DNA of 64,000 nt from an uncultured virus (IMG/VR IMGVR_UViG_3300027365_000012). Taxonomy: Duplodnaviria; Heunggongvirae; Uroviricota; Caudoviricetes. The stretch lies in IMG/VR virus record IMGVR_UViG_3300027365_000012; one strand, given 5' to 3'. A program made the position numbers and the translations under genes. The first letter of the stretch is position 1, and each line of letters starts with the position of its first letter. The notes below the pieces were generated by a model. It was not told the origin of the DNA and did not search any database. It saw only the letters and a list, made by a program, of their open reading frames with translations. Shown here one piece after another: positions 512-59,254 of this stretch.

Positions 512-834
512 AACCCACCAAACCCAAGAAGTCAACCCGCAAGGACCTGGAGTACCAGGTCCTCGAGCTCAAGGCACAACTGGCCTTCCGCTACGCCTTC
601 GCATCCAGCGACGTCGAGAAGGCCAGCACCAAACACATGATGGGATCCGGCGTCCTGCTGCAGCTCACCGCGCTTGGCGGCCGGGAAATCATCAAGCCAG
701 TGGTCATCCGCGACGGCCTGAGTGACGAGACGATCGAGGCGCTGAAGAAGGACTTGGTCAGCAGCTACGAGCTGGCCACGATGCACAAGCCTACTGCGGA
801 CAAGGAACCTGTAAATACGGGAGGTGCGAAGTGA
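508..834 (+). CDS. hypothetical phage protein
   Basis: ORF coupled to neighbours (ATGA/GTGA overlaps), high GC3. Confidence 0.7.
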   Translation: MKPTKPKKSTRKDLEYQVLELKAQLAFRYAFASSDVEKASTKHMMGSGVLLQLTALGGREIIKPVVIRDGLSDETIEALKKDLVSSYELATMHKPTADKEPVNTGGAK

Positions 835-1118
835 GCGAGAACCAGAAGACGCTACTGCAACAGGCACTCGACATGTTGGAGGAACAGGCGCTGCACATTG
901 AGGCGCCGATGCTCCCCGCAGGAGAAGAGCTGCTGAAGCGTATCCGCGCTGCGATATCACAGCAGGTCGAGCCAGCCCCGGCGCAGTGCCCCGCTGACCT
1001 GCTACTCGGAGACAAGGTGCTCCGCTGGAACCGCCTGCAGATGACCCCGCCGATCGCCATCGGCCAGGAGTACTGGGTGGCCGAGTCGGTGATAAAACTG
1101 GCGAGAGGGGAAAGCTGA
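831..1118 (+). CDS. hypothetical phage protein
   Basis: GGAGG RBS, overlapping start/stop. Confidence 0.65.
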   Translation: MSENQKTLLQQALDMLEEQALHIEAPMLPAGEELLKRIRAAISQQVEPAPAQCPADLLLGDKVLRWNRLQMTPPIAIGQEYWVAESVIKLARGES

Positions 1119-1345
1119 TGAGCCTCATGGAGAACGTTTCCGACGTATACGAGCAGGAAGACGCCCAACGAGTAGAGGCCATTGCATCAACGCTGATGCA
1201 ACAGTTCTACGACCGCGTGCTGACCCAGGAAGCAGGAGAGAGAACCACACTTCGAGCACTAGCCCGCAGGGGTGAGCCACGAGCAGCTCGCTGCGTCCAG
1301 GCCGCTGCGGTGATCGTCAATTTCATGCGAGAGGAGCTGACGTGA
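1118..1345 (+). CDS. hypothetical phage protein
   Basis: TGATG coupling. Confidence 0.6.
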   Translation: MSLMENVSDVYEQEDAQRVEAIASTLMQQFYDRVLTQEAGERTTLRALARRGEPRAARCVQAAAVIVNFMREELT

Positions 1346-1575
1346 TGGCTGACGACTACATCTACGACGTGCACCACGTCGCCCGCGACTACGACCGCAG
1401 CCTGATTTGCCGCTGCCCACACTGCCAAGAGATCACCGGCTTAGATGGCGACGACGTGGAGGACGTCCAGGGCGAGCAGTACAAGTGCCGCTGCGGAGGC
1501 TGGTTCCAGATCGACAGCTGCGCCCGCCGCGTGAAGGGCGAGTTGCCGGCAAACAAGGGGATTCCCGATGAGTGA
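1342..1575 (+). CDS. small Zn-ribbon protein
   Basis: CPHC...CRCG cysteine pairs; GAGGAG RBS. Confidence 0.65.
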   Translation: MMADDYIYDVHHVARDYDRSLICRCPHCQEITGLDGDDVEDVQGEQYKCRCGGWFQIDSCARRVKGELPANKGIPDE

Positions 1576-1753
1576 GCCACGCCGATTCCTCGTCGGCCAG
1601 ATCGTCCGCTGCCCAGCCGACCGCGGCGACGCCGGCTACCAAGGCACCGTCGTCAGCGTAGGTGAGCCCCTGCAAGGCAAGGACTACCGGTGGATCGAGG
1701 TGCGCCACCCCAAAGGTACCAAACACGTCTGGCCGTCGAATCGGCTGGGCTGA
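1568..1753 (+). CDS. hypothetical small protein
   Basis: Coupled ORF, high GC3. Confidence 0.6.
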   Translation: MSEPRRFLVGQIVRCPADRGDAGYQGTVVSVGEPLQGKDYRWIEVRHPKGTKHVWPSNRLG

Positions 1754-1796
1754 CCCTGACCTGTAAATAAAGCAATAAGCATATAAGGAATTTCAC

Positions 1797-2637: not shown

Positions 2638-2639
2638 CC

Positions 2640-4137: not shown

Positions 4138-4140
4138 CCG

Positions 4141-4716: not shown

Positions 4717-4743
4717 CCCCTGTAATTACAGGAGTAAGCATCT

Positions 4744-6447: not shown

Positions 6448-6471
6448 AACTGTAATTACAGGAGTAACACG

Positions 6472-6870: not shown

Positions 6871-6873
6871 CCC

Positions 6874-7092: not shown

Positions 7093-7121
7093 ACCGTATT
7101 TACAGCATTAAGGAGATAAGT

Positions 7122-7748
7122 ATGGAAACTATGCGCATCTACGTCGCATGCCTTGCCAGCTACAACAACGGCCGACTGCACGGAGCCTGGTTCGACCTCG
7201 ACGACTACGTCGATGCCGAGGATCTGAGCAAGGCCGTGAAGGAGCAGGTGCTCCTCACCAGCTCTTACCCGAACGTGATGGTCGAGTGCATTGCCTGCGG
7301 CGGTGACGGCATCAACCCCAACGAATCCGACAGCATCTGCAAGGCCTGCCACGGCACCGGTGAAGTCCCGTCCGCTGAAGAAACAGCGATTCATGATCAT
7401 GAAGGCTTCCCCGAGGGCAGCGTCGGCGAGTACACCAGCTTCGGCAAGCTCTACGAGATCCGCGACCGAATCGCCGAGGCCGAGGAAGAGTTCGGCGACG
7501 ACGGCCAGGAGATCCTGGAGGCGTTCGAACACTGTTTCGGTACCAACGACACGCCGATCAGCACCATCCGCGACGCCTACCGCGGCAAGTACGGCAGTGG
7601 TGCCGAGATGGAGCAGGAGTTCGCTATCGAAACCGGCCAGATCAAGGAAGACAGCCCCTATTTCCACTACATCGACTGGGAGCGGGTCTGGGCGGACGAC
7701 TGCGACATCAGCGAGCACAACGGCCACTTTTTCTGGAGCAACTGGTAA
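7122..7748 (+). CDS. ardA: antirestriction protein ArdA with inserted CxxCxGxG zinc-finger
   Basis: RIYVACLASYNNGRLHGAWFD N-terminus, EETAIHDHEGF, YIDWE C-terminus, strongly acidic. Confidence 0.85.
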   Translation: METMRIYVACLASYNNGRLHGAWFDLDDYVDAEDLSKAVKEQVLLTSSYPNVMVECIACGGDGINPNESDSICKACHGTGEVPSAEETAIHDHEGFPEGSVGEYTSFGKLYEIRDRIAEAEEEFGDDGQEILEAFEHCFGTNDTPISTIRDAYRGKYGSGAEMEQEFAIETGQIKEDSPYFHYIDWERVWADDCDISEHNGHFFWSNW

Positions 7749-8403: not shown

Positions 8404-8723
8404 CCCACCACCAGTCGTCTATCTTCCCAGGTGCGTGGTGGCTCTCCAACCGGTACAGGGTTGTCGACGTCGAAGGCAGAGACCTCTTGGACCCGGCAGA
8501 ATGGCCAGCCTTCAAGAAGGTGGCCAGACGCCGCGCCGAAAGCCTCGGCTACAAGCTGGTCGGCGACGAGCTGCAGCGGGAGACGCGGAAGGTCGTCTAC
8601 CGGCGCGCGGCCGACTTCGACCTGGCCCTGTCGATAAAAAGGGCTTGCTGGAAGGAAGGTAATGAGTGCTTCGTGCACAAGCACGAGGACGGCTCATTCA
8701 GCACCTGGGAGGTCTGGTCATAG
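8367..8723 (+). CDS. hypothetical phage protein
   Basis: AGGAG RBS before ATG 8367. Confidence 0.6.
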   Translation: MPEKYAKIVHQLAHHQSSIFPGAWWLSNRYRVVDVEGRDLLDPAEWPAFKKVARRRAESLGYKLVGDELQRETRKVVYRRAADFDLALSIKRACWKEGNECFVHKHEDGSFSTWEVWS

Positions 8724-8778
8724 CCCCAGACCTGTATTACTGTATTTCCTTATTAAATTAGAAATTGGAGCTCACTAT

Positions 8779-9083
8779 ATGACCCTGACGAAAGAAGTCC
8801 GCAAAGACCTGGCCGCTAAGCTCACCGCCAAGGCGATCGAGAAGCACGCGCCGGCGTAGCCATGGGCGTTCCAGCGAGGTTCCTGGCCGGCTGGGTAATG
8901 GCCGCCTATACCACCGGCACCTGCCTCCAGCTGATGGCGCCGGTGGTAGCTGGGCCGCTTCCTGAGCCAGCCCCTCCGCACAACTGCCCAGACAAAGACG
9001 TCATCCACGGCGTCGGGTCTGACCTACGTAGCTACCAGCGAGTGGTGGACCTCTGCTCGCTCGAAGGCATGAAGCGCCGATAG
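8779..9083 (+). pseudogene. probable disrupted gene (26-aa ORF followed by an out-of-frame ORF)
   Basis: GGAG RBS and good codon usage, but stop at 8857-8859. Confidence 0.35.
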
Positions 9084-9119: not shown

Positions 9120-9350
9120 ATGAATATGCAAATCACAGCCAAACGCACACCACAAGGGCCCATCTACTTCCGAGACGGACAGCCGATCACCTGGAGGGAG
9201 GTGGCCGCTGAGACAGGCCTCGACCGCAGCCTATCCAGGCTACTGCTGAAAAAAGCCGCCGCATCCGGGGAGGAGATCCAAGACTTGCGGAGCTGGCGAG
9301 ACCGCAACGTGCTCATCTGGAAGCTCGAAAACGAGTTCATGTCCGCCTAG
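9120..9350 (+). CDS. hypothetical HTH-like protein
   Basis: ITWREVAAETGLDRSLSRLL; AAGGA RBS. Confidence 0.55.
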   Translation: MNMQITAKRTPQGPIYFRDGQPITWREVAAETGLDRSLSRLLLKKAAASGEEIQDLRSWRDRNVLIWKLENEFMSA

Positions 9351-9416
9351 CCGTATTCCTGTATTTACACAAATACGCAAAACCATTAGGATTACCAAGC
9401 TAGGACAAGCAAAGAC

Positions 9417-9620
9417 ATGGAGCCCACGGTGAGCGAAGCGGTGAAGATGGTCCTCGAGATGCTTGAGCAAACGCCGAGAGTCTCCGAGGACCGGCACGTT
9501 GAGGCAAGCCTGACGTTCGAACTACCCAACGCCCTCGGGTGCGGCTCCCCAGCCTTGCTGGCCAGGAAGATTGCACACGACGTGCGCCGATTAGAGATCA
9601 TGATGGAGGAGCAGACCTGA
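9417..9620 (+). CDS. hypothetical phage protein
   Basis: TGATG coupling to the xis-like gene. Confidence 0.55.
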   Translation: MEPTVSEAVKMVLEMLEQTPRVSEDRHVEASLTFELPNALGCGSPALLARKIAHDVRRLEIMMEEQT

Positions 9621-9817
9621 TGAGCGAGGTCGCCAAGAAGTTCATTTCCACCTCGGAGCTGTGCCAACGCTACGATAAGAGTTCAAGGACGATCTCCCGC
9701 TGGCCGGTCACCCGCGGCTTCCCGAAGCCGGCAATCGCCAACAACGGGTCCGAGAACCTCTACCTGATGGAAGAGGTGGAAGCCTGGGAAGAGCGGGAAA
9801 TGCGGAAAGGGGCCTAA
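9620..9817 (+). CDS. excisionase / AlpA-like recombination directionality factor
   Basis: ELCQRYDKSSRTISRW...GFPKP...YLMEEVEAW winged-HTH pattern, near the integrase. Confidence 0.75.
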   Translation: MSEVAKKFISTSELCQRYDKSSRTISRWPVTRGFPKPAIANNGSENLYLMEEVEAWEEREMRKGA

Positions 9818-10080: not shown

Positions 10081-11310
10081 TCACTTCGCCCGGCAAGGAG
10101 GGGTCGCAACGATCGACATGATCCGGTCCCACCACTTTTTATAGGCGGCAGCCTGTTCCTCTATATAGAGGTGGCGGTCGTACACGCCTTGCATCCCCTG
10201 CAGGGCGTGCCCGAGCATCACTTCAGCCACATGCACATCGGTCAGCGTCGAGAAGTTGGTCCTAGCTGTCTTGCGCAGATCGTACAGCGACCAGTGCTCC
10301 ATCTCGACGCCGTAGAGGCGTTTGACGTTCCGCATCACCGAAGCCGGCATGCTCAGCGTAGCGTTCACCTCGAGCGGCTTGGCTGCCTTTTCCTGCGTGA
10401 ATAGCAGGTGAGGGCTGCGAGAGTGGCGCCTGGCTTCATCGATCAAAGGCCTGACTTCAGCGATGATCGGCCGGCAGATGCTGCGCCGTACGCGTTTTCT
10501 GACCTTATTCTTATCAGGTGGAACGGTCCAGATGCCCGCTTCAAGGTCGAGGTCCGTCACGGGATCGAGAGACCTGAGCTCAACGCCCCTGCAGCCGAAG
10601 ACCAGCAGCAGCTTGAGGAATATCTTGGTGCCAGGCGTCATGCGAGAAGCCTCCACGCCGTACCAGAACTGCCTGATTTCCTCTTCGCTGAGTGCCCTGC
10701 CAGCAGGCTCCTTCTGGATCATCAGATCCTCCGCGACGGACACGTCAATCAACGGCTTCGTCTTCATCAGGCCGCGCCGGTGCGCCCACTTGTGCAGCTG
10801 CTTGGCCGTTTGGAGGATCCTCTCGGCGATCGACGGCGTGTTGTCTGCGACGGTTTCGATAAGGGTCAGCCATTGGTGTGCGGTCGTCTGGTCAGCCGGC
10901 AGCTTGCCCAGCTTCGGGAAGACGTGGATCTCGAAGCTGCGAAGGTAGTCTTCGGCCTGCTGCTTGTTCTCGAGGCAGTAGTTCGTGTGCCACTCCCGAT
11001 ACAGCTGCTCGTTGGTCCAGACCTGGGCGAACTCGTCCCGTTCAGCTGTGCGTACATGCCGGGGGTCACGGCCCTTCTCCAGTTCTGTACGCAGTCGCTG
11101 GTGTTCTGTACGCGCCTCCCTCAGCGAGAGCAGAGGGTATGTACCCAAGTCGAGCCGCGCCGGCTTGCCACCAAACCGGTAACGCATCTGGAAGACGATC
11201 TTGCCGGTGGCTGAAACCCGCACACCAAGGCCCTCTCCGTCCGCCTTCTCCATGGCCGCCTCATGCGGCTTCTTGTGATGGGCCTTCAGCCAGGAATCTG
11301 ACAAAGCCAT
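10081..11310 (-). CDS. int: tyrosine integrase, P4/IntA type with N-terminal arm-binding domain
   Basis: MALSDSWLK...DGEGLGVRVS...LGTYPLLSLREAR; catalytic GCR, YDLRK, MLGH, GVY; AGGAGG RBS. Confidence 0.92.
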   Translation of the reverse strand: MALSDSWLKAHHKKPHEAAMEKADGEGLGVRVSATGKIVFQMRYRFGGKPARLDLGTYPLLSLREARTEHQRLRTELEKGRDPRHVRTAERDEFAQVWTNEQLYREWHTNYCLENKQQAEDYLRSFEIHVFPKLGKLPADQTTAHQWLTLIETVADNTPSIAERILQTAKQLHKWAHRRGLMKTKPLIDVSVAEDLMIQKEPAGRALSEEEIRQFWYGVEASRMTPGTKIFLKLLLVFGCRGVELRSLDPVTDLDLEAGIWTVPPDKNKVRKRVRRSICRPIIAEVRPLIDEARRHSRSPHLLFTQEKAAKPLEVNATLSMPASVMRNVKRLYGVEMEHWSLYDLRKTARTNFSTLTDVHVAEVMLGHALQGMQGVYDRHLYIEEQAAAYKKWWDRIMSIVATPPCRAK

Positions 11311-11640
11311 GTGAATTGCCTCCTTCTGGGGTGTGTACATGCCCCGAAGGTCAATCGTGCCACAGACGCGAACCATGTACACAGCTGTGTACATGAAATC
11401 TGTGGCTAGGGTTGTTCTGGGTTGTCCGCGCATGACCTGGCCAATATCGCTGAAAGCCAGTATTCATCTATGTTTGAGGAGAGTTATTGACTGAGGTTGT
11501 CGCGGGGTGTCGGAGGGGTCAGTTATCGATGTGCGCGATGATGGAGAAATTCCGTATGTGCCCGAGATTGCTGGACTTTTTGATGTCAGACATCCACTCA
11601 AACCTGAACTATGTACGCTGCTATGTACGCATTTTCAAAA
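11311..11640. other. attP region: lepA-homologous core flanked by arm-type repeats
   Basis: Minus strand 11519-11593 encodes MSDIKKSSNLGHIRNFSIIAHIDN*; RTGTACRY repeats at 11333, 11375/11387 and 11611/11623. Confidence 0.8.
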
Positions 11641-11801
11641 GTGCCCCGTTTGGAGCGATCCGCCGGGCAGCTCTCTAATATACAGGAACCAGGGGAAACC
11701 TACTCAACGGAAAACGAATAGGGTGGTAGACCTGTATTTACATATTTACGGACCTGTATTACTGTATTGCCCAGCCAACACAGAACTTCCAAGGAAAAAG
11801 A

Positions 11802-12065
11802 ATGTCGTCTGCCGAACTACTCAACAGCCTGTCCCATCCTACCCGCCTGGACATCGTCCAACTGCTGCACGCCGAGCAAGGCCTCTGCGTGAACGATGTG
11901 GCGAACCGACTCCAGATCTCGCAGGCAAATGCTTCCCGCCACCTCTGCATCCTGAACCAGGGCGGGGCGGTGGTTTTCGAGCGACAGCTGAACAAGAAGA
12001 TCTACAAGGCCAAGCCGCTGGTGATTGAACTGATCAACACGGCAGAGGAAGTGGTGAAGCACTGA
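11802..12065 (+). CDS. ArsR/SmtB-family HTH transcriptional regulator
   Basis: LSHPTRLDIVQLL...LCVNDVANRLQISQANASRHLCILNQGGAV...IY. Confidence 0.85.
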   Translation: MSSAELLNSLSHPTRLDIVQLLHAEQGLCVNDVANRLQISQANASRHLCILNQGGAVVFERQLNKKIYKAKPLVIELINTAEEVVKH

Positions 12066-12199: not shown

Positions 12200-12817
12200 A
12201 TGCTGCTGTACCTCACCGCCCTCTCCCTCCCCAAGCCAGGGACGTTCATCGCGCTCCACCGGCACAAGTCTGAGGTGCGGATGCGCTGGACAGAGGCGGA
12301 CAGGGTCAACTATCTGGACTTCCTTGCGCGGGTGGAGCAGCTCTACCGGAAAGGTCCAGCCGGCTTGAATCTCCCGCGCCCCCTTCTCGATGCTGTATAC
12401 GACAGCGAGCTCACCGCATCCATGGCCACCAATCGGATTCTGCCCTACTACCTCGCCTGCTCAAAGAGCAGCCTCGATCGGTCGTTTCTCATCTCGCCGG
12501 AAAAGCATGACATCGAGATGATAAGGCTGGCCGGCACCGAGGACGAGCCAAACGGCCTGCGGTTCGTCGTGATTGGGAGAAACTGTGACCAGCTGAAACT
12601 GAAGCCTCAGATCATCGCCGCGGCAGGCAGTGCCCCGGGCGACACCCTGGAGAGCAGGTCGAATCACGCACTGGTCAAGGCGGTGTCGGAGGCCCCGGAT
12701 GAGCCGGCCTGCGAGGGCTGCGCGAAAATAGTAGCCGTCCCCGCAGAGGCGAATGTCACTTTGGCTAGGGATAAACGAGGTGAGTTCGTACGAGAAGTGG
12801 CTAGAATATGGGCATGA
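12200..12817 (+). CDS. hypothetical protein
   Basis: AAGGAG RBS, 205-aa ORF. Confidence 0.65.
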   Translation: MLLYLTALSLPKPGTFIALHRHKSEVRMRWTEADRVNYLDFLARVEQLYRKGPAGLNLPRPLLDAVYDSELTASMATNRILPYYLACSKSSLDRSFLISPEKHDIEMIRLAGTEDEPNGLRFVVIGRNCDQLKLKPQIIAAAGSAPGDTLESRSNHALVKAVSEAPDEPACEGCAKIVAVPAEANVTLARDKRGEFVREVARIWA

Positions 12818-12861
12818 TGCCAAAATCGGTGTATTGAAGCCTTTATATACGCGAATCTGTA

Positions 12862-12890
12862 TTGACAGGTATACGGTGGCCAAATAGGAT
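12862..12890 (+). promoter_or_regulatory. sigma70 promoter overlapped by an operator array
   Basis: TTGACA-N17-TAGGAT. Confidence 0.7.
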
Positions 12891-12926: not shown

Positions 12927-13133
12927 ATGCCTAAAGCCCACCCACTGGGAACCTCCCTGCAGGCTTCCTACCTCCTGGCCCGCCAGGAGAAAAAATTCAC
13001 GATGGACATGCCAGAAGAGCTGCATGCCAAGCTAAAGCAGATCGCAGCGTTCAGCCGCAAGTCCGCCAAAGACCTGATGCTCGAAGGCCTGACCGACTAC
13101 ATCATCCCGAAGTACACCAAAATGCCAGAATGA
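12927..13133 (+). CDS. ParG/CopG-like ribbon-helix-helix DNA-binding protein
   Basis: KKFTMDMPEELHAKLKQIAAFSRKSAKDLMLEGL follows the RHH strand-helix-turn-helix pattern. Confidence 0.75.
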   Translation: MPKAHPLGTSLQASYLLARQEKKFTMDMPEELHAKLKQIAAFSRKSAKDLMLEGLTDYIIPKYTKMPE

Positions 13134-13142: not shown

Positions 13143-13451
13143 ATGAATAAAATCCTGGCGAGGCTGCGCCGGCTCTCTGTCGAACACGCTAGCACCGGCA
13201 CTGCGGAAAGCAGGGACTACGCTATCGGAATGTTCATCCAGGAGCTGACCGGAGTCGTCTGCGAGGAAGTAGTAGACGCAACCTCAGATGGGGTGCTTTA
13301 CACCCTCTACTCCGACTGGGTCGGTGCGGTCATTCGCGGAGAGGGGCCATCTGACCGGCGCTGCCGGCTGGTGAGTGCCATCACCGTATTCCCGAAAACA
13401 CAGCTCACCAGAGCAGCAGAGCAGAGCAACGTCGTCCAACTATATGGCTGA
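13143..13451 (+). CDS. hypothetical protein
   Basis: GAGGAG RBS. Confidence 0.6.
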   Translation: MNKILARLRRLSVEHASTGTAESRDYAIGMFIQELTGVVCEEVVDATSDGVLYTLYSDWVGAVIRGEGPSDRRCRLVSAITVFPKTQLTRAAEQSNVVQLYG

Positions 13452-13782
13452 CATCGACGAGAAGGTCGTCCAATACACCCTGCAGTTCAGCCGCCAATGC
13501 AAGCTGGACGTGGATGAGCACGCCCTGCGTGACAACATCTACAGGCATCTCCAGGTCGCCCGATCGGTAGTCACCGAAGCTACCCTGGAGCGTATCGGTC
13601 ATGTCCACCTATCCGTCATGATCAACACCGCCGCCCGGTACAACCTGTCCCTCGCCGAGGTGATGATGGAAGCCGTGCGTGCCGGCTCACAGCCCGTCGC
13701 CCCGCTGTGCGTGGCGGTAGAGGCCCGCAAGACCAGCGTCAAGCGCATACCCAAGCGCCCCTCCCTCCGCGTCGTAAAATGA
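13444..13782 (+). CDS. hypothetical protein
   Basis: Overlaps the previous stop, high GC3. Confidence 0.6.
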   Translation: MADIDEKVVQYTLQFSRQCKLDVDEHALRDNIYRHLQVARSVVTEATLERIGHVHLSVMINTAARYNLSLAEVMMEAVRAGSQPVAPLCVAVEARKTSVKRIPKRPSLRVVK

Positions 13783-13786: not shown

Positions 13787-13816
13787 TTGACGGTCGAAGA
13801 CCGCTGCCGGTAGCAT
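13787..13816 (+). promoter_or_regulatory. candidate sigma70 promoter for the replication operon
   Basis: TTGACG-N18-TAGCAT. Confidence 0.45.
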
Positions 13817-13904
13817 CGCCTCTTGCGCCAAACCTTATAAGAAGAAAACGTACTGCACAATAACCTGTATTTACAGGTACACAGCATTACATAAGGATAT
13901 TCAC

Positions 13905-20270: not shown

Positions 20271-20299
20271 TTGACGGCCTGGGAATCGGCCTGTATAAA
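20271..20299 (+). promoter_or_regulatory. sigma70 promoter overlapped by an operator array
   Basis: TTGACG-N17-TATAAA. Confidence 0.65.
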
Positions 20300-20375
20300 G
20301 CAAGGCCCGTATTGCTGTATTTATGTAGATACAGCACATCGGAACCCATACCGACACTGTAAAAGGATCCTGACC

Positions 20376-21254: not shown

Positions 21255-21295
21255 ACCAAGGCATAACCTGTATTTACAGGGATAAAGGAAAGAGC

Positions 21296-21526
21296 ATGGA
21301 CAATCAACACAAGAAGATTACCGGATACCGCGACCTCACCCAGTCAGAAATCGACGGTATGAATTCCATCAAGTCGCTGGAAGCCGACGTTGGCAACCTG
21401 TTCAAGCAGATTGGCGAAATCGAAGGCGTGGACCCACGACTCCTCTCGCTGGCCAAGACTAACTTGCAACAAGGCTTCATGTGGTTTGTTCGCTCAATCG
21501 CCAAACCTGCAGACCCCTTCGCATGA
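21296..21526 (+). CDS. acb2: Acb2 anti-CBASS cyclic-oligonucleotide sponge
   Basis: MDNQHKKITGYRDLTQSEID.MN..K...LAKTNLQQGFMWFVRSIAKP closely matches the Pseudomonas-phage Acb2 pattern. Confidence 0.85.
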   Translation: MDNQHKKITGYRDLTQSEIDGMNSIKSLEADVGNLFKQIGEIEGVDPRLLSLAKTNLQQGFMWFVRSIAKPADPFA

Positions 21527-24949: not shown

Positions 24950-25010
24950 TTTCAACGCACCTTAACCTGTAATTACGGGCCGGGAATCGCCTGTATTTGA
25001 GGAGTTCACT

Positions 25011-30652: not shown

Positions 30653-30698
30653 CCTGTATTGCTGTAAATACAGCAACCCGTAACAACGGAAGCACAAC

Positions 30699-31966: not shown

Positions 31967-32057
31967 CCCGCCGCGCCCTCCGCCACTTCGCCGTCACCCT
32001 CCTCGCCGCGCAAGCGGCGGGGTGGGCTCTTAGTGCCGTAATTACAGGAAGCCTGTT

Positions 32058-38447: not shown

Positions 38448-38509
38448 GATAGGTACCGGCCTGAGTTGGATGAATCCTAACCTCAGGCCGTATTTATGGG
38501 AACCCTTAT

Positions 38510-38659
38510 TTACAGGTCTTCAGGTAAATGCTCGCGCGCCAGTTCGCCCAGGTACGCCAGCTGGCAGTGCCGCAGCTCGCCCAGGCGGTCGCGCCAGAAC
38601 AGCGCATTGATCAGGCCTACCAGACGAGTGAAGTGCCGCTGTTTCTGTCCAAGTGTCAT
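38510..38659 (-). pseudogene. chimeric 49-aa remnant (M15-endolysin-like N-terminus fused to C-terminus of a tail-linked small protein)
   Basis: MTLGQKQRHFTRLVGL|INALFWRDRLGELRHCQLAYLGELAREHLPEDL. Confidence 0.55.
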
Positions 38660-38732
38660 TGGATAACCCCCCTTGTTGATGAACGAGAGGATTATCCAAT
38701 GTTGGCTGGAGTTACACTAATTTGATTCATTC

Positions 38733-38766
38733 AAATAAAAAGCCCACCGAAGTGGGCTTGTTTGTT
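38733..38766 (-). terminator. intrinsic terminator
   Basis: On minus strand AAGCCCAC-TTCG-GTGGGCTT followed by TTTATTT. Confidence 0.8.
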
Positions 38767-38795
38767 TATATCTTACTTAGGCGATGACTGTGGTG

Positions 38796-39102
38796 TCATT
38801 GCGTAAATCCGCTTACTAAATGGGAGCGAGTCCTTTCGCTCTCGTAGGCCTGGAAACAATGATCCGGCTGCCAGAAAAACAGCCTATTGATCCAGGTGTG
38901 TGCGAATACCCAACGGCGCTTAGGCGATTGATCCAATACCCCCGCACCGGTAGGCACGACTGGACAATGTTTCATCAGGAGTACCTGCCAATATCGTATT
39001 GATCAACTGATCAACAGCTATTAGTATTGCTTCAAGTTTACTGAGTTCCATCTGAATTCTCCGGCCAAGCCATTTTAGGCAGCATGATGAGTAGTTCTTC
39101 AT
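38796..39102 (-). pseudogene. small tail-fibre-linked phage protein with +1 frameshift
   Basis: IAVDQLINTILAGTPDETLSSRAYR continues as ...WINRLFFWQPDHCFQAYESE after removing one base of the C5 run at 38939-38943. Confidence 0.7.
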
Positions 39103-39275
39103 CTGATTTCACCATAAACCCCTGCTAAAGCCGCCGCATATATGGCACGGCTATGCTCTTCTACATCATCAGGACACGCAGTGAAAGGCAGCCACCCGAA
39201 AGTAGCATGCTCAACTTCACAATCAATAGTCCCCCGTTCATTATAAGAAACATTCCGTACATTATAAACAGTCAT
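39099..39275 (-). CDS. small tail-fibre-associated protein (58 aa, below ORF-track cutoff)
   Basis: MTVYNVRNVSYNERGTIDCEVEHATFGWLPFTACPDDVEEHSRAIYAAALAGVYGEIR; TAATG and ATGA coupling. Confidence 0.7.
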   Translation of the reverse strand: MTVYNVRNVSYNERGTIDCEVEHATFGWLPFTACPDDVEEHSRAIYAAALAGVYGEIR

Positions 39276-41026
39276 TAGCTAATCCTCAGCCACAATGTAG
39301 CATAACCATTACCTGAAGTGTCAAAGTGACCCATAGCTTGCCATGTCCCTGTTAGGAATGAAGAATTTCTAGCAATACCACCTGTAGATGTTATGCAAGC
39401 AAATTGCAAGCTACTACCGGCTATTTGATTGCTGGCATTAGGGGCATTGACTGCGTACGCAAACGCATATGTCCCTACTCCGCCGCGTGCTGTAGGTGGT
39501 GAAGTATTAACTGTTTTCCATGTTCTATCACCTGCAAGGAATGTAGAAGAACTAGCTGTGCCAGAACCTAGAGCAGCGGTTGGAACAGCCGCTGTAGTAG
39601 TACCTGTCAAGGATCCTGCCGTAGTAGCACTAGTAGCATTTCCTGCAAGATTACCGTTAAAGGTAGCTGCAGTTACATTTGCATAAGCAGTGCCACCTTG
39701 TCCGTAGAATCTGAAATCACTCGCTCCACGAAGCTGTAATGAGCTTGCCCACAGGCCTGGCTGGTGAAAACCTATTGTTGGAAATACCGTATTAGCAGTC
39801 CCATTACCTCTTGCCTCAAGACCACCTACATGGTAATCATTACCCGTGCCCGTGAATATACCGCGAGTACCTTCTAGAGTACCTGTTAACGTACCACCAG
39901 TTAATGGAAGCTTAGTCGCATCTGCAACGGTGATGTTGGAGCCGACGTTCGCTGCCACACCGTTAATGGTTATATTGGAGGTAAGCGCCTCTGCGTAGCG
40001 GGCACGGTCAACGCGAACCCCATAGGTGTTGGTTCCGTTCCAACCCATTAGCGTTGGATAGGTGCCCGCCCAAGCGACCTCAGGATTTGTGTTGTTAACA
40101 GCCTTCCCTGAAGGCGACACGCTGTTGGATGCGTCAAAAATGACGTGAGAGCCATTGCCTACTCCCTGTCCGCCACCATAATTGGTCCAGTTCAGTACGC
40201 CTGCGCGGTTTGCTGTTCCAGAGTTGCCGCTTATGCTGATGCCGTAGGTTCCGCTGAGACGCGCACTCGGGACGGTGCCGGCCAGATTGCCCGCATCCAG
40301 GTAGTAGGCACTGTCCCTGCCCGTTGAGCAGGAGGGCGTTGGCGTTGGCGTTGAGCACGGCTCGTTGAAGGCACTGAGACCGGTTTCGTCCTGGATGACG
40401 GTGATCGACCAGCCGTTGCCCCAGTCGAGCTCGACGTTCGAGAATCCGGCCAGCATCTCCTCGATGATCACCTTCGGGTAGTTCCACGTCGAAGCGGTGT
40501 TGCCCAGCAGGATGCAGGCGTTGGTACCGTCGAAGGCGAAACGCACGGAGCTGAACGGGACGGACGTTCCCATGGTAGAAGCGGAAGTGTTGACCCAGCT
40601 GCCGCTGCCGTAGTTGTAGCCGCCGAGGGACAGTTCCCACGCGCCCACGACGTTGTAGTTGAAGCCCTTCAGCTTCAGAGACATCATGGTGCTCGTCCAC
40701 CCGAACGGGAGGGTGATCTTCATGGTGCCCGTCACCGTCGCAGCACTGTTGGTGTAAACAGCCAGGTTGCGGTAGGTGGTAACGCCAGCAGCGCCGGCCA
40801 GGAACTGGTGGACCAGTGCCCCGGTCATCTTGCCGCCGGAGAGCGGGAGCTTGGTCGAGTCCGCTACGGTAATATTCGCCGTACCATCGAACGCAGTACC
40901 GTTGATGGTTCGAGCGGTTTGCAGCTTGGTCGCAGATCCGGCGTTACCCGTTACAGTGCCGGTGATGCCCCCGGTGACATGCAAGTCACCGTAGACTTTA
41001 GTTGGTCCAAGATCAGCCATTGACAA
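39275..41026 (-). CDS. tail fibre protein (mosaic)
   Basis: ATKLQTARTING.FDGTANI and KLPLTGG fibre repeats, G/T/N-rich. Confidence 0.85.
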   Translation of the reverse strand: MSMADLGPTKVYGDLHVTGGITGTVTGNAGSATKLQTARTINGTAFDGTANITVADSTKLPLSGGKMTGALVHQFLAGAAGVTTYRNLAVYTNSAATVTGTMKITLPFGWTSTMMSLKLKGFNYNVVGAWELSLGGYNYGSGSWVNTSASTMGTSVPFSSVRFAFDGTNACILLGNTASTWNYPKVIIEEMLAGFSNVELDWGNGWSITVIQDETGLSAFNEPCSTPTPTPSCSTGRDSAYYLDAGNLAGTVPSARLSGTYGISISGNSGTANRAGVLNWTNYGGGQGVGNGSHVIFDASNSVSPSGKAVNNTNPEVAWAGTYPTLMGWNGTNTYGVRVDRARYAEALTSNITINGVAANVGSNITVADATKLPLTGGTLTGTLEGTRGIFTGTGNDYHVGGLEARGNGTANTVFPTIGFHQPGLWASSLQLRGASDFRFYGQGGTAYANVTAATFNGNLAGNATSATTAGSLTGTTTAAVPTAALGSGTASSSTFLAGDRTWKTVNTSPPTARGGVGTYAFAYAVNAPNASNQIAGSSLQFACITSTGGIARNSSFLTGTWQAMGHFDTSGNGYATLWLRIS

Positions 41027-43782: not shown

Positions 43783-45804
43783 TCACGCAAAGTTGAAATC
43801 AAGGGATTCAGTGGCGGCGTTGTACTCCATGACGAACCGGCCAGAGCCGAATCCGGTCGCATGTAGCTTGCCGTCGTAGTTGGTGCGCGTGGTGTTATCG
43901 GGATCAGTCGTGCCGGCGTAGAAGCGCCCCGCAGCCTTGCTTGTGCCGGTGACCGCTAGAGCCGTCGAGAAGGTCTTGACGCCTGCTACGCTCTGATCGC
44001 CGGTGAGGCTGACTTTGCTGTCGAGCGCAGTCTGGAGGCCGGTGACGTTGGCTAGGGCTAGGCTGGTAAGGCCGGAGCCGTTGCCGGAAATCACGCCTCT
44101 GAAAGCGACGTTATTACTGTCGTGCGAATAGCTGAACACCACCTCGTTGACGCCAGCGCTACGGCGATAGAACGAAACGCGGTCAGCTGCTTCCCCTGTG
44201 GCAAACGCCGGGGTGCCGTCGCCGTTGTAGAACACGCCGCCGCCATGGCTCCGTTCTTGCCCCACGTACAGATAGCCTGTGCCTTGAATGCCGCCGTGCG
44301 CTAGGAATCCAGCGTTGTAGCCGTCAGCGGCCAGGACCTTTACGGTGGTGTCAGCGGCGCGCGTGGTGGCTCCGACAACAAGGTCACCTGACAACGTACC
44401 GCCGGTCAGCGGCAGCTTGGTCGAGTCAGCAACGGTGATGTTGGCCGTGCCGTCAAAAGCAACACCGTTGATGGTACGAGCGGCTGCTAGCTTGGTGGCA
44501 GATGCCGCATTCCCTGTTGACGGCAGTGCGCCTACATCGGCGGGTGTGAGTGACACCGTCCCGGTCTTTCCATTGACAGACGAAACGCTTTCGGTGTTGT
44601 CGATCTTGTAGAACTGCCCCAGGTTCTTCGAGTAGACCAGGGTGTCGCCCACGCCGTAGTCAACGCCGCCAACGGTGCCGCCAACGGTAACTTTCCAGAA
44701 GCCGGCTGAGGTCGGCGTGGTCGGGTATGCACCGGAAGACAGATCGACTGAGCCAAGTTCGGACAGGGTGCCCGTTAGGCTGGAGGCAGCTGTAACAGCT
44801 TCGTCACGCGCCGCCTCTGCCGCAGTCTTGGCCAACTGCGCCGCCGTGTTGGCATTCGCAGCGTTGGTGGCACTGGTGGCCGCCTCAGAAGCCTTGGTGG
44901 TAGCGGTGGCAGCCGAGTTCGCAGCGTTGGTGGCGCTGGTAGCAGCCTCACCCGCTTTGGTCGTTGCTGTGCCTGCAGATGTCGAAGCCGAGCTTTGCGA
45001 GGCGGCGGCGGCCGATGCGCTGGCAGCTGCCTTGATTGCATGGTGCTTGGCGCTGTACTTGCCCGTTTCGACAGCCACGTTCTCGGCGTTTTCAGCCCAC
45101 TGCCCTGCTTTGGTGGACGAAGTGGATGCGGAGGTCGCGGAGTTCGAGGCTTCAGTGGCTTTGACACCCGCTGTGGTCGCTGAAGTCGAGGCTTCAGTTG
45201 CCTTAGTAGTGGCGGTCGAAGCCGACGCGGCCGCGTTCGTGGCAGACGTACTGGCTTCGGACGCTTTGGTCGTAGCGGTAGTAGCCGAGTTCGCAGCGTT
45301 GGTTGCAGAAGTAGCCGCTTCACCGGCCTTTGTACTGGCTGTGTTAGCGGAGGCGGCGGCCTCACCGGCTTTGGATGAGGCAACTCCCGCCGAGCTCGCG
45401 GAGCTAGCAGCTGAGGTAGAGGCTTCGCCCGCTTTGGTGGTGGCGGTGGTGGCGCTTGCGGAGGCGCTGGAGGCCGACGCAGCGGCTTTAATCGCGTGGT
45501 GCTTGGCGCTGTATTTGCCAGCCTCCACAGCTTCCCCTTCGTTGGCCTCGGCCCACTGGCCAGCTTTGGTAGCTGATGCAGAGGCAGAATCCTTCGAGGA
45601 GGTTGCTGACGCTGCGCTAGACGCCGCCGCGGCCTTACTAGCCGCCGCCTCAGTCGCATAGGCAGACGCTTCAGCCGCCTTGTCGACCGCAACCTGGACG
45701 TTCGCAACCGACTGCATCTCAGCTACGTCGCCGAGTAGGGCAGAGACCTTGGTGGTCAGCTCGGTGACGGCGGCGTTGAATTCAGGGAAGTTGGTGGCTG
45801 TCAT
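43783..45804 (-). CDS. side tail fibre-like protein
   Basis: Ala/Ser/Thr-rich 14-aa repeats, VSSVNGKTG, ARTINGVAFDGTANI. Confidence 0.85.
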   Translation of the reverse strand: MTATNFPEFNAAVTELTTKVSALLGDVAEMQSVANVQVAVDKAAEASAYATEAAASKAAAASSAASATSSKDSASASATKAGQWAEANEGEAVEAGKYSAKHHAIKAAASASSASASATTATTKAGEASTSAASSASSAGVASSKAGEAAASANTASTKAGEAATSATNAANSATTATTKASEASTSATNAAASASTATTKATEASTSATTAGVKATEASNSATSASTSSTKAGQWAENAENVAVETGKYSAKHHAIKAAASASAAAASQSSASTSAGTATTKAGEAATSATNAANSAATATTKASEAATSATNAANANTAAQLAKTAAEAARDEAVTAASSLTGTLSELGSVDLSSGAYPTTPTSAGFWKVTVGGTVGGVDYGVGDTLVYSKNLGQFYKIDNTESVSSVNGKTGTVSLTPADVGALPSTGNAASATKLAAARTINGVAFDGTANITVADSTKLPLTGGTLSGDLVVGATTRAADTTVKVLAADGYNAGFLAHGGIQGTGYLYVGQERSHGGGVFYNGDGTPAFATGEAADRVSFYRRSAGVNEVVFSYSHDSNNVAFRGVISGNGSGLTSLALANVTGLQTALDSKVSLTGDQSVAGVKTFSTALAVTGTSKAAGRFYAGTTDPDNTTRTNYDGKLHATGFGSGRFVMEYNAATESLDFNFA

Positions 45805-46096
45805 GGCTAACCGTATTTACAGGTTTATGGGTCGAATGGTAGCAGGGAGTGCTAGCTGCTACTAGCCCGTCCGTCAACCAATCTCCAGACGTAGCGACCC
45901 TGGCATTTGAACGCCTCGAGCTTCTCCATCCGCGGCGTGCCGGCACGAGTAGCGAGCTAAAAGCCTGTTACGTCTACCACGATGTACCGGGAGGTGTTTC
46001 CGTTGCTCTGATTGCAGTCCCAGTTGGTCACAACACCTTGCCCTCCAGAACGAAGCCGGACCCAGACTGCCTGATCTACATGGGCCTCGCCGACAG

Positions 46097-46646: not shown

Positions 46647-49600
46647 TTCATTGCTCCTATAACCATAATTTGGACGATTTCTCCTGGTGGGGCCATGGCT
46701 CCAAACCTGTACGAACCAGGCATAAGCCGGACAGACGTGAAACCAGTCCCCCCATAGTAATAAGAAATGTTATCACCAACACCAGTCGTCCGTACAAGGC
46801 CCAGCGGGCCAATAGAAAGTTCATGAATAATTCCGGTACCGGTAGGCGCGAGAATAAAGAACTGCATGTTACGGTCGTCCGCTATCGCACTCACGGTGGC
46901 GAAAATAGAAACCGTAGTAGGCTCGTATACGGTGTATATCACTGACGCTTTCATATCTGAGTAGGGGGCGGGAAACGAGACGTTACCCAGCACAGCCGAG
47001 TAGGGTATGGTTACGGCGTTGTCCTTGATCTTCAGGGTATCTACAGCCAGGTCAGCGATCTTGGCGCTGGTGATCTGCGCGTCAGCGATCTTGGCGCTGG
47101 TGATCTGCGCGTCAGCGATCTTGGCGCTGGTGATCTGCGCGTCAGCGATCTTGGCGCTGGTGATCTGCGCGTCAGCGATCTTGGCGCTGGTGATCTGCGC
47201 GTTGCCAATCTTTGCTGTGGTGATAGACGCATCGCCGATCTTGGCTGTGTTGATCGAGCCGTCTCGGATCAGCGCGTCCTGAATCACTGTCTGGCCGTTG
47301 ACTACGGCGAACGCCAGGGTGTACGTGCCGCCAGCCGGGTTGTAGATGTAGAAGCGGTCTGCGATGGCCCCGATTTCTGCCACCGTGCCGTCCACCGAGA
47401 TGCCGAACACAGCTTTCTTTCCATTCACCGTGGCGGTGGTCACCGCCCGGGCCACTGCCCCATCGGTGTAGGACGTCTGGGCAGTGAACTGCTGGTAAAC
47501 CGAGGCGAACTGGTCGTTGGTGGATGACGTCAGGGTGTCGATACGAGTGGACAGAGCGCCGTCGGCGTCTGCCCTGGCCGTCGCCTCAGAGGCGATGGCT
47601 GCGGTGATGTCGTTGTCGACCGTTGCCTTAAGTTGAGTGATCTGGGTAGCCAGTGCAGAGTCTGCGTCTGCCCTGGCCGTCGCCTCAGAGGCGATGGCTG
47701 CGGTGATGTCGTTGTCGACCGTTGCCTTAAGTTGAGTGATCTGGGTAGCCAGCGCGCTATCTGCATCAGCGCGAGCTGCTGCCTCTGAGGTAATCTGCGC
47801 CTGGATATCGTCACCCACCTGGACCTCAAGGGTGTCGATCCGAGTAGCGATGGCTTGGTCAGCGCTGGCCAGCGTAGTCAGCTCCTGTGTCACCGTTGCT
47901 TTGTTGGTGTCGAACTCCGACTGCAGGGTGGTGATACGGGTGGCCAGAGCGCTGTCCTCGTCCGCTCGGGTCGCCTCCTCCGTGGTCGCGCGGGCTGAGT
48001 TGCCTTCGTGCAGGGCGACGGTCGCCAGGTACCGCACGGTCTCCATCTCGTTCATCATCTCGAGATTGGTGACACCCACGGCGAGGTTGTCGACGGCCCC
48101 GTCGAGCAGCGTCATTTCGGCCTTTGCTCCGGCTAGGTCCGTGCGAATCACATCCAGGTCGGCCTGAACAATGGCAGCTACCTCGTCAGCTACCACTTCG
48201 GCTACAGACGCCTTGGACGCCTCCACCATCTCCTCAAACAGTCCGCCGGGCTTGCGGATGTCGGTGTCTACGGCGTCGAGGATGTCGTCGAAATCTTCAA
48301 GCGTGGTCGCCTGCACCGGGTACCAGGCTGACAGGCCGTAGGCGTTCGAGCCGCGGACGTAGTAGAAATACTGGGTTCCGGAGCGAAGCCCTGCATCCAC
48401 CAGGTCAGTGGAGACGCTGAGACGCACCGCGTTGCTTTCGATCTGCGCGTCGGTAAGTGCCGTGGCGGATCTCCAGAACTCGTAGACCGCACCCGGGTAG
48501 GCGCTTCGCGGGTACAAGGCAACGCTGAACGTCGCCACGCTCACATCTACGCTGTCCGGCGGAGTGGGCAGCAGAAGGTTGGATATTTGAATGGTTCTGG
48601 AGACCCACGGCGAGGAGCGGCCGGTGGAAGTCACCGCCTTCAGTCTGAACATCCACTGGCCAGCGCCGGCGTCCGACTCGTCGAAAGAGGTGCCTGCGCC
48701 GACGTACAGCGTGCGGAACGAAACGTCAGTAGGGCCTTGGGCCTCTAGGATGTACTCAGTGACCCGGACATCCTTGCTCGGTGTCCAGCCGATGGTGATC
48801 CGCTGGTGTTCGACCCCGCCTGCCAGGTACTTGTTGGCGACTGCCGTGATGTCCATTGGCGAGGCCACCGGGCCGCTGGGAAGGTAGCTGTTCTGCGTCT
48901 CTGGTATTTGCAGCCCTAGCTCAACCTTCGAATACTTGTTCGGGTCGTGCTCAGTGGCGGTCACCGTGTAGACGGGCTCGTCCGGGTCCTCGTCGACGGA
49001 TACCACACGGTACAGTGGCAGCGTCACAGATAAGCTGGCCAGGACCCACACGGCGCCGGCCAGCGGGGCTACACTCAGCGGCTCGAGCAGGGTCACCTGA
49101 TCGCCTGCAAACGACTTGACCTGCTTACACTCGATGGATCCTGACGGAAGGACAACAGAGAGGAACCAAGTGTCGCTGGACACCTGCTCTGGCACCTTGT
49201 CCAGGGTAAGCTCTGAAGTTCCAGGAATCGTCACCCTCCCGCCCATCCTGGCGCCGGCGCGATCCGGATCTGCGACCTGGATGAACTCACCAGGGCGCAG
49301 GTCTGCGTGGTCTGCTGATGCTCGGTAGGTAAGGGTTTGGGTCTCCATTCGCTCGGAATAGAGGATCCACATACCAAGGCGCCGTGCCTGTCCCCGTGAG
49401 GTGCACCCAAGGGCGGTAACCTGCGTCTCCCGCCAGCCGAACAGCTCGATGCTGTCCGGGTCCTCGACGAATTCTGGCTTCTGCTTGTAATTGTCGTCAG
49501 GGTCGTTCCACATGACGATCGCTACGGAGTGGCGCTCACGCAGCGATGTGCCGGAGTATTCGAAGTCGCCGTCTATCGCGTTCGCCGGGGTGACCAACTT

Positions 49601-52701: not shown

Positions 52702-52763
52702 ATCGTTCAGGGTGGTTGCGGTGGCCCAACCTTAGCCGAAACCTGTATTTCTGTAAATACAGG

Positions 52764-58378: not shown

Positions 58379-58384
58379 GCGTGG

Positions 58385-58765
58385 TTACCTGCGAGGCGGC
58401 CGGCGGGGTTTTTTCTGGCCGGGGGGCTGATCAACGCTGCCTTTGGCCTTTGCGTAGTGGTCGTACAGAACGCCGTTATCGGTCTCTTCCATCGTCCGGA
58501 AAAACAGCGGTCTAAGGTCTTGCTCCAAGTTCAGGACGTGGTCCGCAAACTGGGACATCTCCTGGTACTGCAGCGGCTGGTAGCCGTGTTCGGCATGCTG
58601 CCGCCTCCTGTGCAGGCGGAAGAACGCATCTACCAGCCACCGCATACCCGGCGGTGGCTCGACGAACCCCTCGAGGGCGGGATGTTTTCTCCCGAACTTC
58701 TCCTCGAGGGCCTTCATCGCCTGCAGCCCTTTCGCCCCGTGCGTGATCAGGAAGCGGCAGAATCC
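58385..58765 (-). CDS. tail assembly chaperone T-like part (reached by -1 frameshift)
   Basis: Open in the -1 frame from GGTAAAG at 58771-58765. Confidence 0.65.
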   Translation of the reverse strand, partial: GFCRFLITHGAKGLQAMKALEEKFGRKHPALEGFVEPPPGMRWLVDAFFRLHRRRQHAEHGYQPLQYQEMSQFADHVLNLEQDLRPLFFRTMEETDNGVLYDHYAKAKGSVDQPPGQKKPRRPPRR

Positions 58766-59169
58766 TTTACCGACTCAGCCGCTTGCTCCTCGGCCTTCTC
58801 CCGGTAATTGCCACGGTTCATGGAGAATCGTTCGATGAACTGCAGGAGGTCGCGGAACCGAGGGTCCAGGAGGTAGTCCAGTCCGACTTTCGGGGTGTAC
58901 TTCAGCGGTTTTCCGCCTTTGGCTACACCTTCCCAGTCCAGTAGCACGGTCTCGGCCAGGACCTTGGCGTTGATCTCATTTGCTACCCGATCGCTTTCTT
59001 CGGTGCCGGCTGTAACTTCGTCCCAGCGCTCCAGGGTCAGCTTGGCCCGCAGCGCGTCAGCCTTGTTCGTGTTGTGGCGGGCGATCTTGAATCGCGCACC
59101 CATGAAGTTGGCCCATACCCCCTCTTCCGCCGCGGTCGGGTCCACTGCCAAGCTATCGATATCGAGCAT
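58747..59169 (-). CDS. tail assembly chaperone G-like
   Basis: Lies between tail tube and TMP; EEGVW...LLDWEGV. Confidence 0.8.
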   Translation of the reverse strand: MLDIDSLAVDPTAAEEGVWANFMGARFKIARHNTNKADALRAKLTLERWDEVTAGTEESDRVANEINAKVLAETVLLDWEGVAKGGKPLKYTPKVGLDYLLDPRFRDLLQFIERFSMNRGNYREKAEEQAAESVKDSAAS

Positions 59170-59254
59170 GTGATTTCCTTGATTGGTTTCTGTATGAAGA
59201 TGGCCGCCATCCTAATGGATGCGCGGCCATATTTACAGCTTTACAGGTTTGCGC

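Follow-up and report, generated by a model that had tools for sequence, protein, structure and literature searches.

The window analysed here is a 64,000-nucleotide stretch of DNA from an uncultured virus (IMG/VR record IMGVR_UViG_3300027365_000012) and is part of a temperate Stutzerimonas-type siphophage genome of 60.6% GC. Arrays of short boxes repeated with an 8-bp period are dispersed over it, most of them at gene junctions. These arrays are real and clade-specific, and are probably bound by a ribbon-helix-helix (RHH) protein encoded in the window, of a kind familiar chiefly from the segregation of plasmids. A first reading of the letters alone (the original prediction) had placed about 20 such loci between positions 809 and 59246 and had picked the RHH gene at 12927–13133 as the likeliest source of the binder. 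Its coordinates are correct, the six arrays it quoted as examples are all found where they were said to be, and its count agrees with the 20 core matches and 19 distinct junction loci described below.

Phased box arrays at gene junctions

The core of the motif, CYGTAWWTACRG, is matched 20 times in the window at no more than one mismatch, where 0.53 matches are expected and 100 dinucleotide shuffles give a maximum of 3. Seventeen of the 20 matches lie between genes, compared with 8.8% of all 12-mers, a background that is inflated because the home-made gene calls missed a few genes. The wholly intergenic cores number 16, and 500 base shuffles of the intergenic DNA yield a mean of 0.17 and a maximum of 2. 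A half-site matrix trained only on two relatives, G003 and G004, finds 22 arrays in the window and 0–4 in each of 10 shuffles; the 22 comprise the 19 junction loci, one overlapping duplicate and two weak matches (39643 and 42733). Half-sites flanking a core fall at multiples of 8 from it in 13 of 30 cases (13.3% expected, p = 5e-5). The same phase is seen in G003 (16/33), G004 (22/39) and G005 (9/11), in counts that rest on orthologous sites and hence are not independent. Core matches in the relatives number 30 in the 79-kb genome G002 (28 intergenic), 27 in G003 (26), 22 in G004 (all intergenic) and 9 in G005 (6), against 1–3 for reversed-pattern controls.

Both the enrichment over shuffled sequence and the 8-bp periodicity foreseen in the original prediction are thus present, while two parts of its description need amendment. 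The proposed placement at gene junctions holds for the 17 intergenic cores but not for the other three, which fall within coding sequence (809, among the final codons of a gene, 17765 and 42153). The proposed tetramer boxes with AT-rich spacers fit at the centre, where the spacer is AWWT, but the constant half-site is a 5–6-mer, CYGTA(W), and the outer spacers are frequently not AT-rich. The longest array in the window has 5–6 box positions. Gaps between sites are uneven (0.6–6.9 kb), and the sites follow promoters and ribosome-binding sites (RBSs). The loci are as follows.

809–820: two-box inverted pair in the last codons of gene 508–834, 10 nt ahead of the next start
1761–1788: inverted pair with weak in-phase boxes extending into the RBS of gene 1797
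4720–4731: two-box site, stop 3 nt before and start 12 nt after
6450–6461: two-box site, stop 2 nt before and start 10 nt after
7094–7105: two-box site ahead of the anti-restriction gene 7122–7748 (phrog_2059)
8732–8751: three direct-repeat boxes downstream of the gene end at 8723
9351–9378: four-box array covering the −35 element (TTTACA at 9364) of the predicted promoter of the 9417–xis operon
11732–11769: two arrays (three boxes, then two boxes 22 bp further on) covering a promoter-like TTTACA-17-TACTGT of the ArsR gene
12841–12876: five-position array of imperfect boxes covering the −35 element (TTGACA at 12862) of the RHH gene's own predicted promoter
13865–13892: four-box array in the leader of the Dda helicase–primase operon, about 50 bp past the predicted promoter 13787–13816
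20291–20334: array at and just past the predicted promoter TTGACG-17-TATAAA (20271) of gene 20376
21268–21287: site past a terminator-like hairpin, ahead of the Acb2/Tad1-family gene 21296–21526
24967–24998: inverted pair and a box 24 bp further on, ahead of the DNA polymerase gene
30654–30689: five-position array ahead of the DNA ligase gene
32036–32047: two-box site ahead of an SbcD-like gene
38488–38515: four-box array, made up of two imperfect pairs 16 bp apart, upstream of the lysis genes on the minus strand
45811–45830: three-box array, 6 nt ahead of the start of tail gene 43783–45804
52743–52762: three-box array between two minor tail genes
59227–59246: three-box array between tail gene 59255–60289 and a tail chaperone gene

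The two arrays at 11732 and 11754 are mutually out of phase because they lie 22 bp apart; the ArsR promoter that they cover was read by eye and falls under the scan thresholds. Two classes of site can be distinguished. Those of the first cover or follow predicted sigma-70 promoters, namely those of the xis operon (9364), the RHH gene (12862), the dda operon (13787) and gene 20376 (20271). Those of the second fit in between a stop codon and the RBS that follows it, 1–17 nt from one side (4720, 6450, 7094, 24967, 30662 and 52751), or ahead of lysis and tail genes. Early, replication, lysis and tail modules all carry sites over predicted promoters and junctions, as expected from the proposed spread over early, replication and late modules. 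Between 8600 and 14000 all three promoter-like sites lie on an array or within 50 bp of one, and those at the RHH gene, xis and 20271 recur in G002, G003 and G004. It is this recurrence in relatives, not the number of promoters, that supports the overlap.

Gene 21296–21526, behind the site at 21268, belongs to the Acb2/Tad1 family of cyclic-nucleotide sponges (E = 6e-19); relatives place other genes behind the same site.

Clade distribution and the candidate binder

Twenty-three IMG/VR records were gathered via the Dda helicase, with G023 and PMBT3 counted as one. The exact core is present in all 12 records of an integrase-bearing clade, whereas the 11 records of a sister clade that lacks the integrase have none. 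The RHH gene, whose co-conservation with the motif had been suggested as a check on the original prediction, occurs in 11 of the 12 motif-bearing records and in no sister-clade record; the one exception, G011, starts at a point downstream of the gene. A window-type integrase is found in eight of the 12 and again in none of the 11; the remaining four motif-bearing records are fragments, 37–69% complete. No core match was found in PMBT3, a member of the sister clade that is described, in the excerpted text of its report, as virulent and as having neither integrase nor repressor (PMC8421299).

The proposed binder is a small protein:

12927–13133, plus strand: 68-residue RHH protein, proposed binder and repressor, ribbon KKFTMDMP with K23, T25 and D27 expected to face the DNA

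It has an Arc-like PHROG match (E = 1e-5) and a profile match to ParD (E = 5e-4). Its Foldseek matches are weak, led by CopA, Arc, CopG, AmrZ and omega, none of them significant alone; nine of the top 10 are proteins that we take to be of the RHH type. The monomer model contains no strand. The predicted dimer, which pairs residues 20–30 around T25, scores 0.75 against 0.00 for the best control, with a pLDDT of 81–82 and agreement between runs in at least 93% of contacts; 20 of 30 solved pairs and one of 23 single chains attain the mark for this score. The dimer prediction probably passes by likeness to solved RHH dimers. K23 and T25 are invariant in 21 of 21 homologues. According to the excerpted text of two reports, RHH dimers recognise tetramer boxes by the residues at ribbon positions 2, 4 and 6, which in the window protein are K23, T25 and D27, and assemble on evenly spaced boxes, the period being 8 bp for ParG and MetJ (PMC3413123, PMC3130281).

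The best link between the boxes and an RHH protein lies outside the family, in an independent sequence. A scan of IMG/VR with a three-box DNA pattern gave 12 matches: 10 in this clade, one at chance level (G025) and one in G026, an unrelated phage of 39% GC with no match to the window DNA polymerase. In G026, 40 of 50 half-sites within 1.6 kb share one 8-bp register at an operon of parA (E = 1e-39) and an RHH-adaptor gene. Four boxes lie upstream of parA, and a long in-register array fills a repetitive coding region of the adaptor gene behind it. The C-terminal RHH of the adaptor matches the family of the window protein (E = 2e-8; hhalign 95.8%) and aligns K, T and D with it at ribbon positions 2, 4 and 6.

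A broader scan points the same way. Three direct WTACAG units with an 8-bp period gave 81 matches and a 10-bp control 119, with flanks fetched for 80 of each; an RHH gene is recorded within 2.5 kb of six of 80 loci against 0 of 119 for the control (p = 0.004), and a ParA-type Walker A for five of 80 against one of 119. Taken together, the fold and dimer predictions, the match with the clade, the G026 locus and the WTACAG scan make it likely that the window RHH protein binds the arrays, as the original prediction had surmised.

Covariation within the clade was also considered. The half-site of G005 is shifted toward GCCGTA, with C before GTA in 15 of 18 cases (window 12/42, G003 14/52, G004 5/42, L053 8/16), and the G005 RHH ribbon is K-T-L. 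This does not pick the binder, because the recognition helix of the G005 ArsR protein changes too and L053 is intermediate.

Two further observations concern phased boxes elsewhere. At G026:C1:38062-39624 (and also in L116) dozens of 8-bp-phased boxes encode the adaptor's 8-residue protein repeats, and a second small RHH gene lies behind. Viral WTACAG arrays adjoin RHH genes with ribbons R-Q-N, S-T-R, R-T-M and K-T-E in L119, L153, L138, L155 and L157, three of which have a ParA-type Walker A.

Several small genes around the RHH gene are rival candidates for reading the arrays or belong to the same block:

9126–9350, plus strand: 74-residue protein gene, temperate clade only, helix-turn-helix (HTH)-like by eye (Pfam E = 0.06), rival binder
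11802–12065, plus strand: winged-HTH gene of the ArsR family, confined to the temperate clade, a rival as binder or else an induction sensor
12200–12817, plus strand: g205 (205 residues), temperate clade only
13143–13782, plus strand: two genes behind the RHH gene, g102 (102 residues) and g112 (112 residues)

g102 is present also in the sister clade; g112 is confined to the temperate clade and is all-helical, with no fold match. Searches for a usable family or fold found none for g205, g112, g102 or an 81-residue protein gene after dda.

Proposed role, alternatives and known systems

The reading that we favour, though by no means firmly, is that the arrays are cooperative RHH operators and that the RHH protein is a lysogeny repressor which also sets roadblocks, without a CI. 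One RHH dimer would occupy each 8-bp unit, and the minimal site would be two dimers on the inverted pair CYGT-AWWT-ACRG. Additional in-phase boxes would recruit further dimers cooperatively, affinity being set by the number and quality of the boxes. In a prophage integrated in the host gene lepA (described below), the end block ArsR–g205–RHH–g102–g112 would be transcribed, and the RHH level would be self-limited through the imperfect array covering its own −35 element. The protein would block initiation at the promoters of the xis operon and the replication genes and may stop read-through, as a roadblock, at junctions within the early, replication, lysis and tail operons. It would thereby do the job of CI or of a stoperator repressor, keeping the prophage silent with no detectable CI. 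Induction would proceed without an S24 domain and with no LexA-type box at the control points; candidates for triggering it are the ArsR protein and a weakly antirepressor-like G002 gene (E = 0.005), two genes downstream of a site.

The original prediction of a non-CI system agrees with the domain searches: neither an S24 domain nor an HTH_3 domain above the cut-off was found in five of five records including the circular G002, whose ends overlap by 212 bp, and one sub-threshold HTH_3 match occurs in G010. A repressor with an HTH plus a Stoperator domain had no PHROG match among 83 open reading frames (ORFs) of the window and 28 of G002; no direct search with the L5 repressor was made.

A wider suggestion, which we offer only tentatively, is that a ParA-less, plasmid-type centromere-binding RHH adaptor was recruited together with its 8-bp boxes as the master lysogeny repressor of CI-less proteobacterial phages. 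Mini-centromeres of 2–6 boxes would then serve as graded operators and roadblocks, with strength set by box number.

Several observations weigh against binding by the RHH protein or against its proposed role. The match with the clade is a single contrast of two clades: the genes found only on the motif-bearing side are the 74-residue protein gene at 9126, xis, integrase, ArsR, g205 and g112 as well as the RHH gene. The six WTACAG loci that adjoin RHH genes represent about four independent types, and several control loci resemble 30-bp coding repeats; the ribbons beside the WTACAG arrays vary (K-T-D, R-Q-N, S-T-R, R-T-M). Because of the few types and the differing ribbons, the scan favours an RHH operator in general over a one-to-one residue code. 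A phased array of another word, YATAA (2–5 copies, 8-bp period), lies just ahead of dda in nine of 10 sister-clade loci (L021, L022, L023, L024, L025, L043, L044, L045 and L048), in one of them with two boxes only, and no orthologue of the window RHH was detected in the sister-clade sequences. Phased arrays in this family therefore do not need the window RHH. As to the role, the three promoter-like matches between 8600 and 14000 do not exceed chance (1.9 ± 1.3), the core itself contains a near −35 hexamer, and for about half of the sites no promoter was scored in the vicinity. All regulator genes moreover share one orientation, so there is no lambda-like switch by which roles could be assigned.

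In the tenth sister-clade locus (L046:3383) the YATAA array lies 6.6 kb upstream of dda, and whole-genome checks show the sister array to be local, not dispersed. It would be read either by another protein or by an older shared reader. An RHH-like ORF of G016 is unrelated; it was not found in the other sister sequences searched.

The alternative that survives best, although we think it unlikely, keeps the RHH protein on the arrays but has it serve lytic growth or establishment, as a Cro-like or Reg576-like timer, while another protein such as ArsR keeps lysogeny. Early and anti-defence genes would then fire on entry until the RHH protein accumulates. In favour of such a timer are the sites ahead of the anti-restriction and Acb2/Tad1 genes and the RHH gene's own promoter, which is among the best sigma-70 matches of the window, and the ArsR gene has the same distribution as the RHH gene. 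A precedent is Reg576, an RHH protein that does this for plasmid establishment genes (PMC6294495, excerpted text). A purely lytic timer would, however, have no need of the sites ahead of lysis and tail genes or over the xis promoter; the integrase-less sister clade grows lytically without dispersed sites, and no separate ArsR operator was seen.

That the arrays are read by something else (ArsR, the 74-residue protein, g102, g112, g205, the 81-residue protein or a host factor) we judge improbable. Five of these candidates share the distribution of the RHH gene, arrays also lie ahead of the ArsR gene, the sister phages retain a related phased array ahead of dda, and g102, present in both clades, has a weak profile match to the repressor MogR (E = 0.03). 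Against this stand the same boxes at the unrelated parA–RHH locus of G026, with its K-T-D ribbon, and the 8-bp period in either orientation, a known RHH pattern. Individual candidates meet further difficulties: the 81-residue protein gene is absent from G005, although G005 keeps arrays; g102 diverges fast among motif-bearing phages (72, 39, 35 and 30% identity); and the ArsR recognition helix varies among phages that share the motif. Two host regulators were rejected on spacing. The LexA-type box, which we take to be CTGT-N8-ACAG, has a spacer of N8 against N4 in the core and is matched once in the window (40746), not at all in G002 and G003, and once each in G004 (G004:C1:58772) and G005 (G005:C1:24096). 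The box spacing presumed for TyrR/PhhR does not fit either.

The favoured repressor reading has also to be set against a centromere-like scaffold, part of the original prediction, in which the RHH protein would coat dispersed sites for segregation or compaction of phage DNA. This is very unlikely. The geometry is that of parH/OF (PMC3130281, excerpted text), and G026, the best independent analogue, has the same boxes at its parA–RHH partition locus. Yet no ParA (AAA_31) above the cut-off was found in five of five records including circular G002, the weak matches being the Walker A of Dda; the phage integrates; and the sites follow promoters and RBSs at uneven spacing. The arrays have 2–6 positions, no more than 5–6 in the window against dozens at the G026 locus, and the excerpted report gives parH with 4–6 boxes only about half of its activity (PMC3130281).

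It is likewise very unlikely that the motif acts as RNA (a hairpin of 4–5 bp covering the RBS) or links genes for swapping by recombination: many sites do lie between stop codon and RBS, and U-G-compatible variants outnumber C-A mismatches 10 to 4 in sense orientation, in counts that include orthologous sites repeatedly, but direct-repeat arrays and arrays over −35 elements cannot form such hairpins, C-A and C-C mismatches are present, the core centre has no bias relative to transcription (ATTT 25, AAAT 21, sense orientation), and the absence of enrichment of alignment breakpoints with relatives at junctions with a site (7 of 19) over those without (24 of 66; p = 1.0) speaks against cassette swapping. 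Because there is neither an orientation bias nor a concentration of gene gain and loss at the sites, the simplest reading is that the motif acts as a double-stranded DNA site.

Several known systems resemble parts of this arrangement. MetJ, compared below, uses a cofactor, and the operators of P1 C1 and the heptads of omega are further comparisons. The statements that follow rest on excerpts of the cited reports. Closest in protein type and proposed role, by description, is F55 of the archaeal fusellovirus SSV1, a small dimeric RHH protein that acts on tandem repeats in early promoters and its own promoter and keeps the carrier state in place of CI (PMC5569661, PMC9608457). The window likewise has a predicted RHH dimer and repeated sites in predicted early and own promoters, but F55 has four promoters in one small region, whereas about 19 loci in 64 kb, including intercistronic, lysis and tail sites, carry another word in a bacterial siphophage. 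ParG of TP228 is also an RHH protein with an N-terminal extension; its parH boxes are tetramers at an 8-bp period, direct or inverted, a box pair is the smallest site, and an operator covers its own promoter (PMC3130281, PMC3413123). This geometry, invoked in the original prediction, is reproduced here with direct and inverted boxes in 8-bp phase. Unlike that system, the window has neither a ParA/ParF partner nor a long centromere array (8–12 or more boxes), its sites are genome-wide, and box and ribbon differ (ACRG against ACTC; K-T-D against R-N-N; PMC3130281, PMC3413123).

L5 and the cluster A phages offer the closest functional parallel to the distribution: a temperate phage carries about 20 stoperators, placed in promoters and in the short gaps between genes, and these are proposed to act on both initiation and elongation by stopping them (PMC9283540). 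The likeness claimed in the original prediction holds at this functional level only, since each stoperator is an asymmetric 13-mer that follows the direction of transcription and has a monomeric two-domain HTH protein as its binder, whereas the window sites are symmetric, phased, not oriented with transcription and probably bound by RHH dimers (PMC9283540). Reg576 of plasmid p576 is an autoregulated RHH protein that binds two dimers cooperatively per operator, with operators of differing build ahead of several establishment genes, including anti-restriction; it differs in its conjugative plasmid setting, four promoters and dual heptamer operator, with no lysogeny or late genes (PMC6294495). 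MrpR of SPbeta resembles the proposed repressor as a non-CI master repressor from another protein family with a repeated intergenic element (SPBRE), but it has a recombinase fold and a 15-bp element at about ten promoters, without phased arrays (PMC10516654). MetJ binds tandem 8-bp Met boxes with the ribbon KKITVSIP, which has K and T at positions 2 and 4, and the Met box core ACGT shares AC with ACRG; it is, unlike the window protein, a host metabolic repressor with palindromic boxes (PMC3413123).

In the open-access literature, supplements aside, we found neither the motif nor the clade described, nor any bacterial phage in which an RHH master repressor acts on phased arrays throughout the genome. 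To our knowledge, the mechanism of immunity is not known for most temperate phages that lack a recognisable CI. In the window, both the sites and a 68-residue candidate for binding them are in hand, so the question is directly testable, and the virulent sister clade provides a natural comparison. Should the RHH protein prove to hold lysogeny, SSV1 F55 would have a bacterial counterpart at stoperator scale, and partition hardware would have turned into a lysis–lysogeny regulator. Dispersed operators as such are already known from L5 and SPbeta, so the surprise is limited.

Integration site and neighbouring genes

The gene order of the window runs from small early genes through xis and a tyrosine integrase to a replication block (Dda helicase, primase, RNR, DNA polymerase, ligase, SbcCD), with lysis, tail and head genes on the opposite strand. 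The closest named relatives are PMBT3, Lana and UAntarctica (primase identity 51–52%), and RHH homologues with 88–89% identity carry the source label Stutzerimonas stutzeri. The integration module consists of the following features.

9620–9817, plus strand: excisionase-like gene, xis (HTH_17, E = 0.02)
10081–11310, minus strand: tyrosine integrase
11519–11593 (limits approximate), minus strand: attP region, a replacement 5′ end of host lepA that reads toward the integrase

The replacement lepA end sits between the integrase and ArsR genes. Junctions with host lepA are visible in the related proviruses G003, G005 and L050, which makes lepA the integration site of the clade and the window its attP form. 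No prophage of the motif-bearing clade was found in scans of GTDB genomes, and no relative of the RHH protein or of g112 in the INPHARED phage collection. The core is absent from the host flank of provirus L050, a flank that at about 7.7 kb is too short for this to matter. Within 11490–11710 (minus strand), a promoter-like site at 11707 accompanies the replacement lepA end; it would drive lepA in the prophage, and in the free phage it would be directed toward the integrase.

Part of the corresponding block of a relative (L061) is present in 21 sequencing runs, in each case as assembled contigs, and four of these runs were compared. In two of the four, both RNA-labelled and from a single study, the ArsR-to-g112 block forms a separate contig (236–2414; 375–2237) that stops before the array at 2429, with a depth of 149 and 163 against about 25 in the next contig; the two other runs continue at flat depth. 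The contigs would be compatible with transcription of the ArsR–g112 block up to the dda array. Contig depth cannot rank genes and DNA carry-over is possible, so we treat this as a lead and do not count it as evidence.

Four minor features were noted elsewhere. At 8779–8859 the window has a 26-codon remnant of a gene that spans 265 codons in G002 and is distantly related to genes of the sister clade; the missing part, about 700 bp, would have lain between short direct repeats. A tail fibre gene contains 30-bp tandem repeats (47051–47255) with staggered matches to G001. The stretch 38500–39330, lower in GC and absent from G002, is probably a moron; it has no core site, and of all sigma-70 matches in the window the one with the best score lies there, at 39268 on the minus strand. 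In G002 a gene near the terminase genes (L026:11656-11937) encodes a DNA-binding protein (phrog_379, HU-like by eye) that most sister phages share.

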